This document shows positions 24,397 to 53,462 of a stretch of 64,000 nucleotides of DNA, piece after piece. The DNA lies in assembly GCA_025062195.1 (NCBI GenBank), contig JANXAS010000011.1, positions 6,149-70,148 of the forward strand, in the 5' to 3' direction. Numbering within the stretch: the first letter of the stretch is position 1; each line of letters begins with the position of its first letter. Both the position numbers and the translations under genes were made by a program. This stretch comes from Armatimonadota bacterium (GTDB taxonomy: Bacteria > Armatimonadota > Fervidibacteria > Fervidibacterales > Thermosaccharophagaceae). The notes under the pieces are model-generated. The model was given only the letters and a program-made list of their open reading frames with translations. It did not search any database and was not told the origin of the DNA.

Positions 24397-24495
24397 CGCT
24401 CTTAGCTCAAAAATTTGTCGGTGCACACCTGTTCATACCCCTGGGCTTTATCCAACCGTTGATAAAGAAGCAAGTGAGCGCCAAATTCATTCAAC
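24397..24495 (+). repeat. Dispersed repeat family Rep-1, copy 4 (degenerate hairpin)
   Basis: CGCTCTTAGCTCAAAAATTTG...CTGGGCTTTATCCA...AGTGAGCGCCAAATTCATTC is colinear with copy 3 (53333-53462). Confidence 0.6.
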
Positions 24496-32136: not shown

Positions 32137-32319
32137 TCCCCGCATGGCTTTCCCATCACCCTGCACAGAAACAGAAAATGCCGCAAAACTGGCTTTTGAC
32201 TGGCTGCTCAGGAATTAGCCCTCAACTCAGGAGTTGGCATTCAACTTTAAAGTTGCCACAACTTGGGATGCGCCGCCAAAATGCGAATGACAATAATTTG
32301 GTAAGCGCTTTTTTCACAA

Positions 32320-32510
32320 CCATGCTATGGGCTTTAGCCCATAGCCACTGACGAAACCTCTAAGCGCCGTCTTTAGACAGCGATGAAAATTCTCGCCGAA
32401 TCAATTTGGCGAGAATTTGCTTCGTCATCAAACACTGGCTAAAGCCAGTGGCATGGATAGCTAAGCGCTGAATACGAACCAGCAAACTTTTGAGTAAAGA
32501 GCGCTCACAT
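32320..32510 (-). repeat. Dispersed repeat family Rep-1, copy 1 (most complete; 137-bp core with 38-nt terminal inverted repeats)
   Basis: Left arm 32320-32357 against the reverse complement of right arm 32419-32456 gives 26/38 identity. Each arm holds its own hairpin around GGCTTTAGCC (32324-32345 and 32433-32450). Central perfect 11-bp stem 32387-32397/32408-32418. Flanking box CAAACTTTTGAGTAAAGAG at 32483-32501. Confidence 0.75.
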
Positions 32511-32605
32511 TAATGTTTGGCTAAAAGCAGCTGCAATATGATGTCCATCTGCGCCGTGATGGCACTATAACTTGCTCCGTGCATTACTGCAAACCTTTTG
32601 GGGTA

Positions 32606-32614
32606 GTGCTACAA
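32606..32614 (+). promoter_or_regulatory. Candidate extended -10 promoter element (TGcTACAAT) upstream of the kinase-vWA module
   Basis: TGCTACAAT matches TGnTAnAAT. It would give a ~210-nt leader before ATG 32833. Pattern match only. Confidence 0.2.
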
Positions 32615-32832
32615 TCACGACTGATGCAGTTTTGAGGAGCACAGCGGAAGCAATGGCTTGCACAAATAAGACGCACGAGGACGGCGAGAAAAAATTATGT
32701 CTGCCTAACACTCTCTGATGGATACACTGGTTGCAAGGTGAGACTACTTGACAGATGAGGACATCACAGCTGGTGCGGGTAAAGCGAAATCTCTTTAGTC
32801 TTCTCCGAGCTTTGGAAGGTGATTAAACTGGC

Positions 32833-34107
32833 ATGCAGATGTGTCCCGAGTGCAGCGCTGATAACTTATCAGGGGCAGTCAATTGCTCAAGGTGCGGTGC
32901 ACAGCTTAAGGGTCTGCTTGGCTCGGGAACGCTGCTAAATAACCGCTATCGTGTGATTAAGGTTCTCGGATGCGGTGGCATGGGTGCGGTATATCTCGCT
33001 GAGGACTTAGCTTTATACGGGCGCAAGGTCGCCATCAAGGAAAACTTTGACACCTCGCAGGAAGGCAGGAAGCAATTTGAGATTGAAGCGAGGATTCTGG
33101 CAACACTATCACACCCCAACTTGCCCAAGGTGTTTGATTTCTTCACAGCGGGCGGAAAGCAATATGTTGCTATGGATTACATTGCCGGTGAAGATTTGCT
33201 CAACCATGTGGAGCAAAATGGACCACAAGGGCTTGAAGAGGCATTGAAATGGTTCTGGCAGGTGTGCGATGCTGTTGAGTATCTTCACCGTCAGTCACCG
33301 CCTGTAATACACCGAGATATCAAGCCGGGCAACATCAAGATACAGCCAGATGGCAGGGCTGTCCTTGTTGACTTTGGCATAGCTAAGTTCTACCGCCCGG
33401 GACAGCAAACTACTTCGGGTGCACAGGCAGTCACTCCCGGTTTCTCACCCATTGAGCAATATGGCAAGGGCATCACAGACCAACGCTCCGATGTTTACTC
33501 ACTCGCAGCAACGCTTTATTTTGCGTTAACTGGTGTGACTCCGCCAGAAGCAGTTGAGAGGTTAACGCACAACAGGCGACTCATTTCCATACGCAGCATC
33601 AATCCGGATGTTACAGAGGCAGTTGAGCGCGTGATTGAGAAAGCCCTCAAGTTGCACCCGAGTGAGCGCTACACAAGCGTGCGCGAATTTAGCGAAGCAC
33701 TTCGTATGGCGATAGCACAACCGGCGCAAAGCGCTTATCGGTGGGGCAGCTATCCACACAGTGGTCATAGGATGCCAACGAGCCAACGGGGCGCACAGAG
33801 AAGAGGTGGATGGCAAACACCACAACATCCAATTCCATATCCAACACAGTCTGCAGATCCATCCGGGTGCCTATTTCAACTCTTTGAAGTGCTCTTCTGG
33901 CTCATCATTGCGTGGAGCTTCGGATGCTGCGTAACCGCTTTCATTATCTACCTGCTTACCGCTCTGGGGTTGGTGTGGAGTTCTGGGACATTCATTGTGA
34001 CCGGAAATCCATTGCCGCTGCTATTCTTTGCCCTATGGGTCTTGATACTGTTGCGAATGACACGCATGATGAATGCGGCACGCAGAAGGCAAAGGAAGAG
34101 ACCTTAG
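32833..34107 (+). CDS. Ser/Thr protein kinase with N-terminal double zinc ribbon and C-terminal TM anchor
   Basis: 424 aa. CPECS...CSRCG zinc ribbon. Hanks motifs GCGGMGAVY, VAIK, HRDIKPGN, DFG and SPIEQ. Pro/Gln-rich linker followed by about 3 TM helices. SD GGAAGGTGA. Confidence 0.85.
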   Translation: MQMCPECSADNLSGAVNCSRCGAQLKGLLGSGTLLNNRYRVIKVLGCGGMGAVYLAEDLALYGRKVAIKENFDTSQEGRKQFEIEARILATLSHPNLPKVFDFFTAGGKQYVAMDYIAGEDLLNHVEQNGPQGLEEALKWFWQVCDAVEYLHRQSPPVIHRDIKPGNIKIQPDGRAVLVDFGIAKFYRPGQQTTSGAQAVTPGFSPIEQYGKGITDQRSDVYSLAATLYFALTGVTPPEAVERLTHNRRLISIRSINPDVTEAVERVIEKALKLHPSERYTSVREFSEALRMAIAQPAQSAYRWGSYPHSGHRMPTSQRGAQRRGGWQTPQHPIPYPTQSADPSGCLFQLFEVLFWLIIAWSFGCCVTAFIIYLLTALGLVWSSGTFIVTGNPLPLLFFALWVLILLRMTRMMNAARRRQRKRP

Positions 34108-34166
34108 GGGCAAACTCATCAGGCGGCGAGATTTGGTCACAGTTTGTTTTCGGGGGTGTATCTGGC

Positions 34167-35519
34167 TTGGGCTCAATCAAACTATCCCACAAGTTGAGCT
34201 ACAGCGTTGTTCCGTCAGGTGGAAGCACGCGACTGATTTACTTGCTCTTGAGGATTGATGCGACTGATGCCTCTTCGGTGCAGGCGCCGATGGCGCTCGT
34301 GGCGGTCATTGACAAGAGCGAGTCAATGATGCTCCCTATGGTCACAGAGGAGCAGTTGGAGGAACTGCGCCGGCGCGGCATCGTGAGGAGCACCGAGAGG
34401 GATGGCGTGCAAGTTTGGGAATTCCGCGGCTTTATGCTTCCGCCGGAATTGCGCGATGCTCCTCGCCCATTTGATTTCGTCAAACGCTCCCTGCGCTCCG
34501 CCGTTGAGCATCTTCAAGACTATGATGAATTTGCACTCATTGCCTTTGCTGCGGAGGCACAGGTTGTCCTGCCGATGCGTTCTGGGAAAATGCGCCACGA
34601 GATGATCAAAGCGCTTGATAGTGTTGAGAGGTTGCAGCTCGGTGAGGAGACGAAAATGTCAAAGGCGCTTGAAATGGCGCACGAGCAACTTGCGCTGAGG
34701 TTGGGTGAGCCAAAGTTGCTCCGAACCATCGTCATCAGCGATGGATATGCCCTTGATGAGAGCCAGTGCATTGATGCAGGTAGGCGTATGGCAGATGATG
34801 GGATCAGGATAAGCACGATGGGTGTTGGGGTGAATTTTAATGAGGAGTTAATGGTCAAGCTTGCAGACATATCCGGTGGCGAAGCGTTTTTTGTGCCAGA
34901 CCCCTCACATATACCCGATGTGCTTAATAGCGAACTTTCTCATTCAAGGCTGATTGCGCTCAGGCAGGCTAATTTGAAGCTGCGTTTCGCTAAAGGTGTT
35001 GAGATACGCAAGGCATACAAGATGCGTCCGGCAATTGCGCCGGTTGAGCGAATTTATGCCAGCGGTGGTCAAGAGATTGAACTTCACATTGGTGACCTAC
35101 AACTCGGCATTAGTGAGTTCCTGCTTGAATTGCTTGTGCCACCAAGGCGTGACGGGGTTTACCGAATTGTTCAAGTTTGGCTCAGCGGCACCATAGATGG
35201 CTGGGAGAGCAATATTGCAAATGCGGATGTGGTGCTGCGATACCAGAGTGGAGTTGCGCCCACCCAACCGGATGGCGAAGTGATGCGTGTTGCTTCCTTA
35301 ATCAGTGCAACGGAGTTGCAGACAAGGGCTTTGCATGATTTGAGGGTTGGGGACACAGTTTCAGCTACGCTTAAACTTAATGCTGCAAAGACGCGCCTAT
35401 TGAGCGCCGGTGCAAACACAAAACACATTGATGAATTGCTCTCCGAGATTGAGAGATATGGGAAGGCATCACCCCATGCCACAAAGAGAATGCGATATGA
35501 GACGCGCCGCCTATCATAA
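34167..35519 (+). CDS. Cytoplasmic von Willebrand factor A (vWA) domain protein with ~230-aa C-terminal beta-rich region
   Basis: The ORF is open from 33912, but that part overlaps the kinase by 196 nt. In-frame TTG 34167 sits 8 nt after GGGGGTG. MIDAS motif DKSES...VISDG. No signal peptide. Confidence 0.75.
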   Translation: MGSIKLSHKLSYSVVPSGGSTRLIYLLLRIDATDASSVQAPMALVAVIDKSESMMLPMVTEEQLEELRRRGIVRSTERDGVQVWEFRGFMLPPELRDAPRPFDFVKRSLRSAVEHLQDYDEFALIAFAAEAQVVLPMRSGKMRHEMIKALDSVERLQLGEETKMSKALEMAHEQLALRLGEPKLLRTIVISDGYALDESQCIDAGRRMADDGIRISTMGVGVNFNEELMVKLADISGGEAFFVPDPSHIPDVLNSELSHSRLIALRQANLKLRFAKGVEIRKAYKMRPAIAPVERIYASGGQEIELHIGDLQLGISEFLLELLVPPRRDGVYRIVQVWLSGTIDGWESNIANADVVLRYQSGVAPTQPDGEVMRVASLISATELQTRALHDLRVGDTVSATLKLNAAKTRLLSAGANTKHIDELLSEIERYGKASPHATKRMRYETRRLS

Positions 35520-35544
35520 TTGAGCTTGCGAGAGGTGATAAAAC

Positions 35545-36309
35545 TTGGGTGAACACATCAGCGACCAAAAGCAGTGTCCTAAATGTGGCGTCCAAAACAA
35601 GCTGAGTGCTAAGTTCTGCAGGGGTTGTGGGGCGCCGTTGGCACAAAAAGCACCAGTGGCAGGAAGAGGCACTGCAATTGAAACCTTAAAGAATGTAGCC
35701 ACAGTTGGCTTGCGCGCTGCTTATCGCGAGCTGTTTGACCCTCAACCGCAACTTGCTGGCACTGTGAGTGGCGTAAGTGTCAGCGAGAGTGCGGAGGTAA
35801 AGTTTGAACCGATGTGGCTGGTAGCAATTTGCGCTTGGTTGGTTGGCTTGTCCCTTGCGTTTGCGCCACGAGTTCTTTCTGGCTTCCTGCTTCTGATAAC
35901 AGCCTGCATTATCTTGCTTTTTCTCTCGTGGCGTTCTTCGGGTAAGCCATACATATCGTTGCTCTCATGGTTAGCGTTAGCAAGCGCGTTTTCAAAGGGC
36001 GGTGCAAAGGTCACGGCTGTGAGTATGAAAGTGAGAGATAGATCCGGGCAGGATGTTGAGGTCACATTCATTGGTGAACTGAGCGGTGTTGCTCCGAGTG
36101 TGGGAGAGCAGATTCAAGTTTGGGGAGTGTATGAAGATGGCGCAAGAACGAGGATGAGAGCTTGGAAAGCACAGGTTGTAAGTGCTGGAGAGTCAGAGCG
36201 CACAGAACCTTTGCGCACGCAGCGCTTGCTGCCGCTCATCCCATTGCTGCTGTTTCCATATCTCGGGTTTGCACTGCTTGCCCTGCTTCGCCTTTTGACG
36301 GGTAGTTAG
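35545..36309 (+). CDS. Zinc-ribbon membrane protein of unknown function
   Basis: 254 aa. TTG start 6 nt after GAGGTGA. CPKCG...CRGCG zinc ribbon, 3-4 TM helices, a ~60-aa soluble beta-rich segment (VEVTFIGEL...IQVWGVYEDG) and a terminal TM helix. Confidence 0.65.
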   Translation: MGEHISDQKQCPKCGVQNKLSAKFCRGCGAPLAQKAPVAGRGTAIETLKNVATVGLRAAYRELFDPQPQLAGTVSGVSVSESAEVKFEPMWLVAICAWLVGLSLAFAPRVLSGFLLLITACIILLFLSWRSSGKPYISLLSWLALASAFSKGGAKVTAVSMKVRDRSGQDVEVTFIGELSGVAPSVGEQIQVWGVYEDGARTRMRAWKAQVVSAGESERTEPLRTQRLLPLIPLLLFPYLGFALLALLRLLTGS

Positions 36310-36508
36310 AATGCCCGACAAACTCTGCCATGATAATCAGCGGGTTAAAAACTGCGGCGAGCTTTACTGGTTTTTTCCAAAAGGACAAGTAACTTGTTGA
36401 CTGCCTATGCTTGTATCACTTGCTGCATTCGCACCATCATTGCTTTTAAGAGATGTAAAACTTCCGCCGGGTTGTTTCATATAGGGAATCCATGTGAGGT
36501 GAAAGCAA

Positions 36509-45136: not shown

Positions 45137-45502
45137 TGGTGAGCATATACCAAAAACGAAAATGAAAGCGGCTTGAAAGTTGCCCTCACATTTGGCTATG
45201 TAACTTTTTGAACAGTTGTTGGGCAAGCGGTAATGTTTCGTTGGGGTGGTTGAAAGCCCGCCATAAAATCACCCCAAAAACAAGTGACGCAAAACGGTGC
45301 GAATGATAAGAATTGATAAAAATGGCGAATCCGAGCTCTCTTTGCTGCAAGCCTTGCTTGTTAGGTTTGTATTTAGCCATGAAGCATAAGCGGAGGCGCG
45401 TTAAGTTGGTGCAAAGTGCAATGTTATCATTTTGCTTGCATTTTGCGCTCGCTTCGCGCTCCGCACTCACTTTGATGGCACTGCGCTTTTCTTCGTGCCT
45501 TA

Positions 45503-45536
45503 CTAAGAACCAACAAACTTTTGAGTAAAGAGTGAC
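45503..45536 (-). repeat. Dispersed repeat family Rep-1, copy 2 (partial)
   Basis: AACCAACAAACTTTTGAGTAAAGAGTGA is 25/28 identical to 32476-32503. A diverged continuation may reach about 45420. A GCTTTAGCC box lies at 45553-45561. Confidence 0.55.
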
Positions 45537-53332: not shown

Positions 53333-53462
53333 ACTTTGCTCAAAAAAACTTGTTTTCGCTTTTCACACATGCCGCTGGCTTTAGCCAGCGGTTAGTGACG
53401 AATTAGTGAGCGCAGAATTCATTCGGCGAAAAATTTCTGTCGGGGATAAATCCTGACGCTAC
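53333..53462 (+). repeat. Dispersed repeat family Rep-1, copy 3
   Basis: ACTTTGCTCAAAAAAACTTG...CATGCCGCTGGCTTTAGCCAGCGGTTAGTGACGAA...AGTGAGCGCAGAATTCATTCGGCGAAAAATTTC. 8-bp hairpin 53372-53379/53384-53391. Colinear with the reverse complement of copy 1. Confidence 0.7.

Follow-up and report, generated by a model that had tools for sequence, protein, structure and literature searches.

An ArnB-type vWA protein encoded between a zinc-ribbon kinase and a zinc-ribbon membrane protein in Fervidibacteria: a candidate bacterial counterpart of the archaeal ArnA/ArnB/ArnC system

Described systems closest to the locus

In Sulfolobus, the von Willebrand factor A (vWA) protein ArnB is partnered by ArnA, a protein with an FHA domain and a RanBP2-type zinc finger of four cysteines. 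In unphosphorylated ArnB, this finger is bound to the β-sandwich and the C-terminal domain; two Hanks kinases, ArnC and ArnD, phosphorylate ArnB on threonines of its helical bundle (the adjacent pairs in RMELIETTRR and ISESIETTRR), and this phosphorylation exposes a surface for the FHA domain (PMC12852372, PMC6509490). This archaellum regulatory network, with Sulfolobus acidocaldarius as the reference organism (PDB codes 8S05, 5A8J and 5A8I), is the system with which we compare a three-gene locus from an Armatimonadota bacterium of the class Fervidibacteria. The locus lies in a 64 000-nucleotide stretch of contig JANXAS010000011.1 (referred to below as the window) and comprises, all on the + strand, a membrane-anchored Hanks-type Ser/Thr kinase (gene 1, 32833–34107, 424 residues), recognized by its Pkinase match and catalytic motifs, a cytoplasmic vWA protein (gene 2, 34167–35519, 450 residues from a TTG start) and a zinc-ribbon membrane protein (gene 3, 35545–36309, 254 residues from a TTG start), defined by a Pfam Zn_Ribbon_1 match and a family profile. 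By analogy with the archaeal system, we give about even odds (a probability near 0.5) to the reading that this triad is a membrane-proximal phospho-switch of the ArnA/ArnB/ArnC type.

The authors of the archaeal work also pointed out bacterial structural relatives of ArnB and a parallel with Sec23/24 (PMC12852372), and the deposition title of the ArnAB complex 8s05 is 'archaeal ortholog of the Sec23/24 core motif'. The bacterial relatives, 4FX5 from Catenulispora acidiphila and YfbK from E. coli, are vWA proteins of ArnB architecture with unknown function and no known partners (PMC12852372).

Two further bacterial arrangements, both from the literature of the Aravind and Koonin groups, share some of the same components. 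The TerY-P triad consists of the TerY vWA protein, a PP2C phosphatase and a kinase–zinc ribbon or kinase–OB fusion (Anantharaman 2012, as cited in PMC11090510), while an actinobacterial theme joins a kinase with zinc-ribbon, β-rich or transmembrane (TM) elements to a PP2C phosphatase and a stand-alone vWA protein (Kaur 2020, PMC7159879). The window cluster resembles both in having a cytoplasmic vWA protein with an intact metal-ion-dependent adhesion site (MIDAS), a ribbon-bearing Ser/Thr kinase, and OB-like or β-rich and TM elements. Unlike TerY-P, it shows no PP2C phosphatase among the identified neighbours; its kinase carries the ribbon at the N-terminus rather than the C-terminus, which is instead formed by TM helices; a ribbon, a β-barrel and TM helices are found on a separate protein (gene 3); the vWA protein is of ArnB type with two extra domains, rather than TerY-like and stand-alone, and is matched by no PADLOC model; and the genomic context is that of housekeeping genes rather than of defence. 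The first-pass annotation of the window could put no name to the combination. It can be named by analogy, as the parts list of ArnA/ArnB/ArnC with some overlap with the TerY-P and actinobacterial themes, and neither the parts of the triad nor its logic are categorically new, given the characterized archaeal precedent and the described bacterial cousins.

Architecture of the three proteins

The product of gene 2 is a cytoplasmic ArnB-type vWA protein in which a vWA domain, a β-sandwich and a four-helix bundle form the Sec23/24 core fold, an assignment that follows from its Foldseek and profile matches to 5a8j, 4fx5 and ArnB. The AlphaFold2 (AF2) model, computed from a ten-sequence alignment, has a predicted local distance difference test score (pLDDT) of 84.8 and a predicted template-modelling score (pTM) of 0.75. 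A Foldseek search of the PDB with this model gave the C. acidiphila vWA protein (4fx5; E value 1e-26, template-modelling scores, here TM-scores, of 0.69/0.72), ArnB in the ArnAB complex (8s05_A/B; 3e-22, 0.63/0.73) and the ArnB paralogue vWA2 (5a8j; 4e-19, 0.52/0.63). The top alignments covered about 440–470 columns and were full-length for ArnB and 4fx5; Sec23/Sec24 (TM-score of about 0.5) followed lower down with an E value of about 1e-13, a range shared by pilus adhesins and ITIH1. Against the PDB, a profile of the vWA family ranked 5a8j best (2.6e-13), with an alignment that runs from the vWA domain through a common DPSQ(I/L)P motif into the sandwich, and also recovered ArnB (8s05_A, 1.2e-6). 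The 4fx5 profile alignment spans positions 102–417, so that the best structural match is aligned over about 315 residues at a sequence identity of only about 15%.

The vWA domain (residues 42–261, 34290–34949, delimited by Pfam, the alignment and AF2 secondary structure) matches Pfam VWA with an E value of 6e-16 and retains an intact MIDAS, with D49-x-S51-x-S53, T162 and D192 invariant in ten vWA homologues. The Pfam match begins only at residue 100, at profile position 15, because an insert of about 45 residues (approximately residues 55–100, 34329–34466) follows directly upon the MIDAS DxSxS. This insert is specific to the family, contains the invariant segments SESMMLPM and RDGV.V.E, and is predicted to form a helix and a β-hairpin. 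The β-sandwich (residues 262–360, 34950–35246, from AF2 secondary structure and Foldseek) probably also includes the modelled N-terminal strands at residues 5–31, as in ArnB, and is followed by a four-helix bundle at the C-terminus (residues 370–449, 35274–35513, from AF2 helices and invariant columns), the helices of which span residues 370–393, 397–413, 419–431 and 436–449. The first-pass annotation had described an intracellular vWA protein with an intact MIDAS and no signal peptide, and this is borne out by the invariant MIDAS columns and by the absence of any hydrophobic N-terminus from the protein. The tail of about 230 residues that it had called β-rich is not all-β: the AF2 model divides it into a β-sandwich of about 100 residues and a four-helix bundle of about 80, and Foldseek places it in the architecture common to ArnB, 4fx5 and vWA2.

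The chain ends in ...SPHATKRMRYETRRLS, within which the last helix carries the motif T439-K-R-x-R-Y-x-T446-R-R-L (the '...RYETRRLS' end). Residues T439, K440, R441, R443, Y444, T446, R447 and L449 are invariant across both Fervidibacteria clades. The 'ETRR' of this helix sits in the bundle equivalent to that carrying the ArnB phosphosites; as the motif is short, its likeness to them is suggestive.

Gene 1 appears to encode an active, membrane-anchored Hanks kinase with a ribbon of the RanBP2 pattern. From the N-terminus, it consists of a zinc ribbon, the kinase domain, a linker rich in Pro, Gln, Gly and Arg, and C-terminal TM helices. The kinase domain (residues 39–282, Pfam Pkinase E value 5e-37) has all its motifs intact (GCGGMG46, VAIK66, HRDIKPGN160 and DFG180). 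The ribbon, read from the translation as C4-x2-C7...C18-x2-C21 (residues 4–21, 32842–32895), gives weak Pfam matches to Zn_Ribbon_1 and DZR (E value 2e-3), and the hydrophobic C-terminal region (residues 345–414, 33865–34074), in which Kyte–Doolittle windows reach 2.3, would accommodate two or three TM helices and is followed by a basic tail, RRRQRKRP.

Gene 3 has a significant Pfam match only to Zn_Ribbon_1 (E value 3e-7). Its ribbon, read from the sequence (residues 11–28, 35575–35628), follows the RanBP2-type pattern C11-x2-C14...C25-x2-C28; it matches Pfam Zn_ribbon_RanBP at 3e-4, under the cut-off of that family, and gives local Foldseek matches to RanBP2 and Nup153 zinc fingers with probabilities of 0.94–0.99 and non-significant E values. 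In a direct comparison, the ribbons of the kinase and of gene 3 share the pattern C-x2-C-x3-N-x6-C-x2-C and are identical at 11 of 22 positions. The complete Hanks kinase with its ribbon, the presence of the same kind of ribbon on both membrane proteins and the small soluble β-rich insert of gene 3, all anticipated in the first-pass annotation, are therefore upheld by the Pfam matches, the four cysteines, the common Cys/Asn pattern and the modelled barrel. The count of TM helices in gene 3 has to be revised: the final helix (residues 227–253) stands, but only two clear helices, a hairpin at residues 87–133, precede it, in place of three or four. Between them lies a small β-barrel (residues 158–211, 36016–36177), predicted to be cytoplasmic. 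The gene 3 model is weak overall (pLDDT 61), and the barrel is its best-modelled part (pLDDT 76–87). All of its weak Foldseek matches are OB folds (RPA, IF1 and Teb1; E values of 0.03 or above, non-significant), and we tentatively describe the modelled barrel as OB-like.

These features place gene 3 in what seems to be an undescribed and unnamed family, predicted to be membrane proteins with a ribbon and an OB-like barrel facing the cytoplasm. A word-based search found only seven close relatives, but a profile search of 1.84 billion representatives recovered 26 clusters at E < 1e-10 with alignments covering the membrane and β parts. All ten of the clusters that were scanned have an N-terminal ribbon and no other Pfam domain. 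In this family a ribbon is followed by a linker rich in Pro and Ala, by a segment of the GGRAAY type and by a TM hairpin; then come a barrel, in which the motif VWG...RAWK is kept across the family, and a final TM helix.

Distribution and genomic context

The three co-directional genes are separated by short spacers of 59 nt (kinase–vWA) and 25 nt (vWA–gene 3). The sequence GGGGGTG (34152–34158) lies 8 nt 5′ of the vWA start at TTG 34167, and GAGGTGA (35532–35538) lies 6 nt 5′ of the gene 3 start at TTG 35545. The starts and ribosome-binding sites first assigned to the genes are confirmed by the open reading frame (ORF) coordinates, by the gaps and by public annotation, which gives identical proteins (P0001, P0015 and P0022) with the same starts in an 'Armatimonadota bacterium' metagenome-assembled genome. 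A promoter and terminator scan found no terminator-like site on the + strand at the triad, but its counts were not above those in shuffled sequence, making it uninformative. None of the three proteins reaches the cut-off of an NCBIfam equivalog.

In a profile scan with one genome per species, full-length relatives of the vWA protein were found only in the class Fervidibacteria, with identities of 59–77% in Candidatus Thermosaccharophagus, 43–44% in Candidatus Fervidibacter and 38% in Candidatus Caldisaccharidevorator. These identities indicate a Thermosaccharophagus-like organism as the source of the window. Synteny was assessed by searching all collected loci with nine window proteins by tblastn. 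In every Thermosaccharophagus locus the kinase, the vWA gene and gene 3 lie next to each other, as they also do in a more divergent lineage (L102), the kinase of which is 60% identical. This order is kept in at least six related lineages, down to 51–60% protein identity (loci L001/2, L003, L008/14, L009/15 and L102). The triad is conserved beyond the window, but it is specific to Ca. Thermosaccharophagus and one related lineage, and the sister genera carry the vWA and kinase orthologues apart.

In these sister genera the kinase has orthologues that are 52% identical over the ribbon, the kinase domain, the linker and the first TM helix and that share the N-terminus MQMCP.CS. The Caldisaccharidevorator orthologue stands alone. 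That of Fervidibacter is followed by an FHA protein of 146–152 residues (L093, 8332–9849; L094; L103, 8248–8706), after which L093 and L094 encode a 356-residue protein in which several TM helices at the N-terminus are combined with an FHA domain and, at the C-terminus, a zinc ribbon. Judged by its predicted domains, this last protein would amount to the domains of ArnA mounted on a membrane anchor. With the FHA and FHA–ribbon proteins of Fervidibacter included, the class therefore encodes all of the Arn-type parts.

The context of the vWA gene varies among Fervidibacter loci. On several contigs, the vWA orthologue is followed on the same strand by genes for a NuoH-like membrane protein (PF00146) and for an ApbE flavin transferase (L004/L005/L006, 7395–9439; L010, 7453–9468; L012, 2110–4200); in L012 the vWA gene was split into two called ORFs, one of 251 and one of 201 residues. 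A different context is found downstream of the orthologue in F. sacchari PD1 (L020). More distant vWA loci (L032–L092, from Opitutaceae, Desulfuromonadales and others) show no linkage to a kinase, FHA domain or ribbon except for one kinase in L049, and are uninformative on the window vWA family. One distant vWA relative (P0014, 541 residues, on a 91-kb JGI contig) has an FHA and a vWA domain fused in one chain; as predicted from its sequence, this fusion would be independent support for a tie between bacterial cytoplasmic vWA proteins and phosphothreonine signalling.

A metagenome scan for distant relatives of gene 3, made with an alignment of 11 closer sequences, yielded six loci on contigs of 58–64% GC. 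In all four informative loci (L097, L099, L100 and L101), the gene 3 relatives directly adjoin zinc-ribbon Hanks kinases on the same strand. These contigs often carry arrays, and the kinase types include ribbon–kinase–RDD and ribbon–kinase–TPR–FGE-sulfatase. Because the two genes adjoin each other in unrelated high-GC contigs that lack a vWA gene, the kinase and the gene 3 family appear to be a recurrent, independently linked and older pair, which the vWA gene seems to have joined only in the Thermosaccharophagus lineage. The array in L097 (5290–15128, 58% GC) contains three zinc-ribbon Hanks kinases, of RDD, TPR–FGE-sulfatase and plain membrane types, interleaved with four proteins that are gene-3-like or carry a ribbon; the array comes after an rve_3 transposase and two TPR proteins and before a HerA-like ATPase.

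In the window, the triad is flanked upstream by PolyA_pol, GalK-like, FUR and LytB genes and downstream by FolC, AP_endonuc_2, DUF4838 and NfeD, and its GC content is that of its surroundings. No MoxR or other AAA+ ATPase gene was found among the neighbours, either in the window or in the syntenic loci. Identification of the flanking genes confirms the earlier observation that MoxR, FHA and PP2C are missing nearby.

The spacer between LytB and the kinase (32167–32832) measures 666 nt here and about 195 nt in a 77%-identical relative (L001). It contains a nested palindromic element resembling repetitive extragenic palindromes or miniature inverted-repeat transposable elements (32320–32456, unstranded), which we regard as context and not as part of the module. 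The element is defined by the inverted repeats 32320–32339/32437–32456 and 32381–32401/32404–32424 and has two related copies on the − strand of the window (53368–53437 and 24434–24492), and the upstream repeat reported in the first-pass annotation is therefore real. Just past it, upstream of the kinase, lies one copy (32468–32501) of a 34-nt direct repeat that recurs 13 kb away (45499–45532) with 88% identity. The spacer between gene 3 and FolC (36310–36508) is 199 nt long here, about 170–190 nt in L001 and 14–46 nt in L003, L008 and L009, and sequence has therefore been inserted between these genes in the sub-lineage of the window. A second repeat had been proposed at this position, after the last stop codon, but the spacer has no second copy in the window and no inverted repeat. 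No Rfam family matched anywhere in the window, long spacers and palindromic element included.

A candidate phospho-switch and the readings that compete with it

In the proposed ArnA/ArnB/ArnC-type switch, one or both ribbons would dock on the β-sandwich and C-terminal face of the vWA protein, as the ArnA zinc finger does on ArnB in the Sulfolobus precedent, and would tether it to the membrane. The kinase, following the same precedent, would phosphorylate the conserved threonines T439 and T446 in the last helix. Phosphorylation might then alter the bundle and with it the partner that is bound, possibly FHA proteins encoded elsewhere. Three resemblances to the archaeal system underlie this proposal: gene 2 has the three-domain build of ArnB, with homology detectable by both structure and profile; a Hanks kinase and zinc ribbons of the RanBP2 pattern are encoded beside it; and its C-terminal helix is conserved and rich in Thr and Arg ('ETRR'). 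Also in its favour are the short gaps with their ribbosome-binding sites and the kept gene order within the lineage, the independent pairing of kinases with gene 3 relatives on metagenomic contigs, and the FHA and FHA–ribbon proteins encoded behind the Fervidibacter kinase. The differences from the archaeal system are that the host is a bacterium without an archaellum, that two membrane proteins, the kinase among them, carry the ribbons, that the kinase gene belongs to the cluster, and that the vWA domain carries the 45-residue insert after DxSxS.

Several observations weigh against such a switch. ArnA is a ribbon–FHA protein, whereas neither ribbon protein of the window carries an FHA domain, and none was found anywhere in the 64 kb; nor is there a PP2C phosphatase among the identified neighbours of the triad. 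The likeness of 'ETRR' to the ArnB phosphosites rests on four residues. Compared by sequence with the ArnA zinc finger, the gene 3 ribbon gives an E value of about 1 and is no closer to it than to ribosomal or RanBP2 ribbons; a specific kinship of the two beyond the ribbon class was rejected on this ground. In about 14 whole-gene Fervidibacter and Caldisaccharidevorator loci, examined as far as the contig reached to a limit of 8 kb on either side, no kinase, gene 3, FHA or ribbon protein is encoded near the vWA orthologue, and the distant metagenomic contigs that pair kinases with gene 3 relatives contain no vWA gene. Finally, the order of the flanking GalK-like, FUR, LytB, FolC, AP_endonuc_2 and DUF4838 genes is kept equally well, at similar or higher identity, and the gene 3–FolC gap in L003, L008 and L009 shows that the triad is not alone in being tightly spaced. 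Because these housekeeping genes, in a block of about 12 kb, are as collinear as the triad itself in the Thermosaccharophagus lineage, conservation within that lineage cannot distinguish function from inheritance.

The same observations give some weight to a second reading, which we hold to be a serious possibility though short of probable: that the three genes lie side by side through descent alone. The kinase and gene 3 would then be a functional pair, as elsewhere in bacteria, and the ArnB-type vWA protein would work on its own, as it has to in Fervidibacter, its gene having landed between theirs in the ancestor of Thermosaccharophagus. This reading would account for vWA orthologues that are encoded elsewhere in Fervidibacter, in variable contexts and with no kinase nearby, for the distant kinase/gene 3 arrays without a vWA gene, and for the collinearity and tight spacing of the whole block, FolC and AP_endonuc_2 included. 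It fits less well with the retention of the vWA gene between the same two partners, in the same order and with short gaps, down to about 51–60% identity. The inserted gene, moreover, encodes a member of the one vWA class known both as a Hanks-kinase substrate and as a zinc-finger partner, and its product has an invariant Thr-rich basic C-terminus.

A more speculative reading, which we consider improbable, is that the locus encodes a bacterial membrane-anchored Sec23/24-core assembly under Ser/Thr-kinase control, in which a RanBP2-type ribbon supplied in trans by gene 3 or by the kinase would complete the core. The likeness to Sec23/Sec24 lies in the order of the domains (a vWA-like trunk, then β-sandwich, then helical domain) and in the zinc finger being part of the motif (PMC12852372). 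In Sec23/24, however, the zinc finger and a gelsolin domain are in the same chain, whereas the window vWA protein has no ribbon in cis and no gelsolin domain; those proteins are also much larger and dependent on Sar1 and Sec13/31, and the TM-scores are only about 0.5. Taken further, to a coat-like module in which the vWA protein is an adaptor recruited by a zinc-ribbon membrane protein for protein sorting or membrane remodelling, the parallel becomes very hard to sustain: the Foldseek E value of about 1e-13, the shared domain order, the title under which ArnAB was deposited (8s05) and the prospect of the motif being completed at the membrane by a membrane protein's ribbon all speak for it, yet TM-scores to Sec23/24 stay near 0.5, the locus encodes no gelsolin domain, small GTPase or Sec13/31-like partner, and ArnAB is itself a regulator and not a coat.

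We likewise give very little credence to an anti-phage or conflict system akin to the TerY-P triad or to single-gene kinase defences such as PD-T4-6, and reject defence as the main explanation, since the kinase matches to the PADLOC PD-T4-6 and mad6 models (E values of 1e-63 to 1e-58, best 1.6e-63) span only the generic Hanks domain and the locus belongs to a vertically inherited housekeeping block, with the GC content of its surroundings, and not to a variable island. The inventory of vWA, Ser/Thr kinase, ribbon, OB-like barrel and TM elements does overlap with TerY-P and the actinobacterial theme (PMC11090510, PMC7159879), but the vWA protein is a three-domain ArnB-type protein of 450 residues, it and gene 3 match no PADLOC model at E ≤ 0.1, TerY-P components included, and the locus has neither PP2C among its identified neighbours nor a nuclease or other effector. 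The role in conflict or stress response that had been floated for the locus thus finds no defence hallmarks to sustain it.

What is new is that an ArnB-type protein is placed, with neither an FHA domain nor a phosphatase, between two ribbon-bearing partners, a kinase and a membrane protein; new too are the bacterial setting and the unnamed gene 3 family that keeps company with zinc-ribbon kinases. In practical terms the locus is of limited value, since only a few uncultured hot-spring species carry the triad and each step of the mechanism is inferred. The locus nonetheless bears on the use of the Sec23/24 core motif (zinc finger, trunk, sandwich and helical domain) outside eukaryotes. If the Sec23/24-core reading were true, the zinc-finger-plus-trunk recruitment seen in ArnAB and COPII would also operate in bacteria, and the gene 3 family that accompanies zinc-ribbon kinases in several phyla would gain a function. 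The recurrence of this family beside such kinases points to an unrecognized accessory component of bacterial Hanks-kinase signalling. For ArnB-type vWA proteins, which in bacteria have so far been structures without partners or function (4FX5 and YfbK), the locus offers a testable bacterial counterpart of ArnA/ArnB/ArnC in which both of the defining kinds of partner flank the vWA protein.

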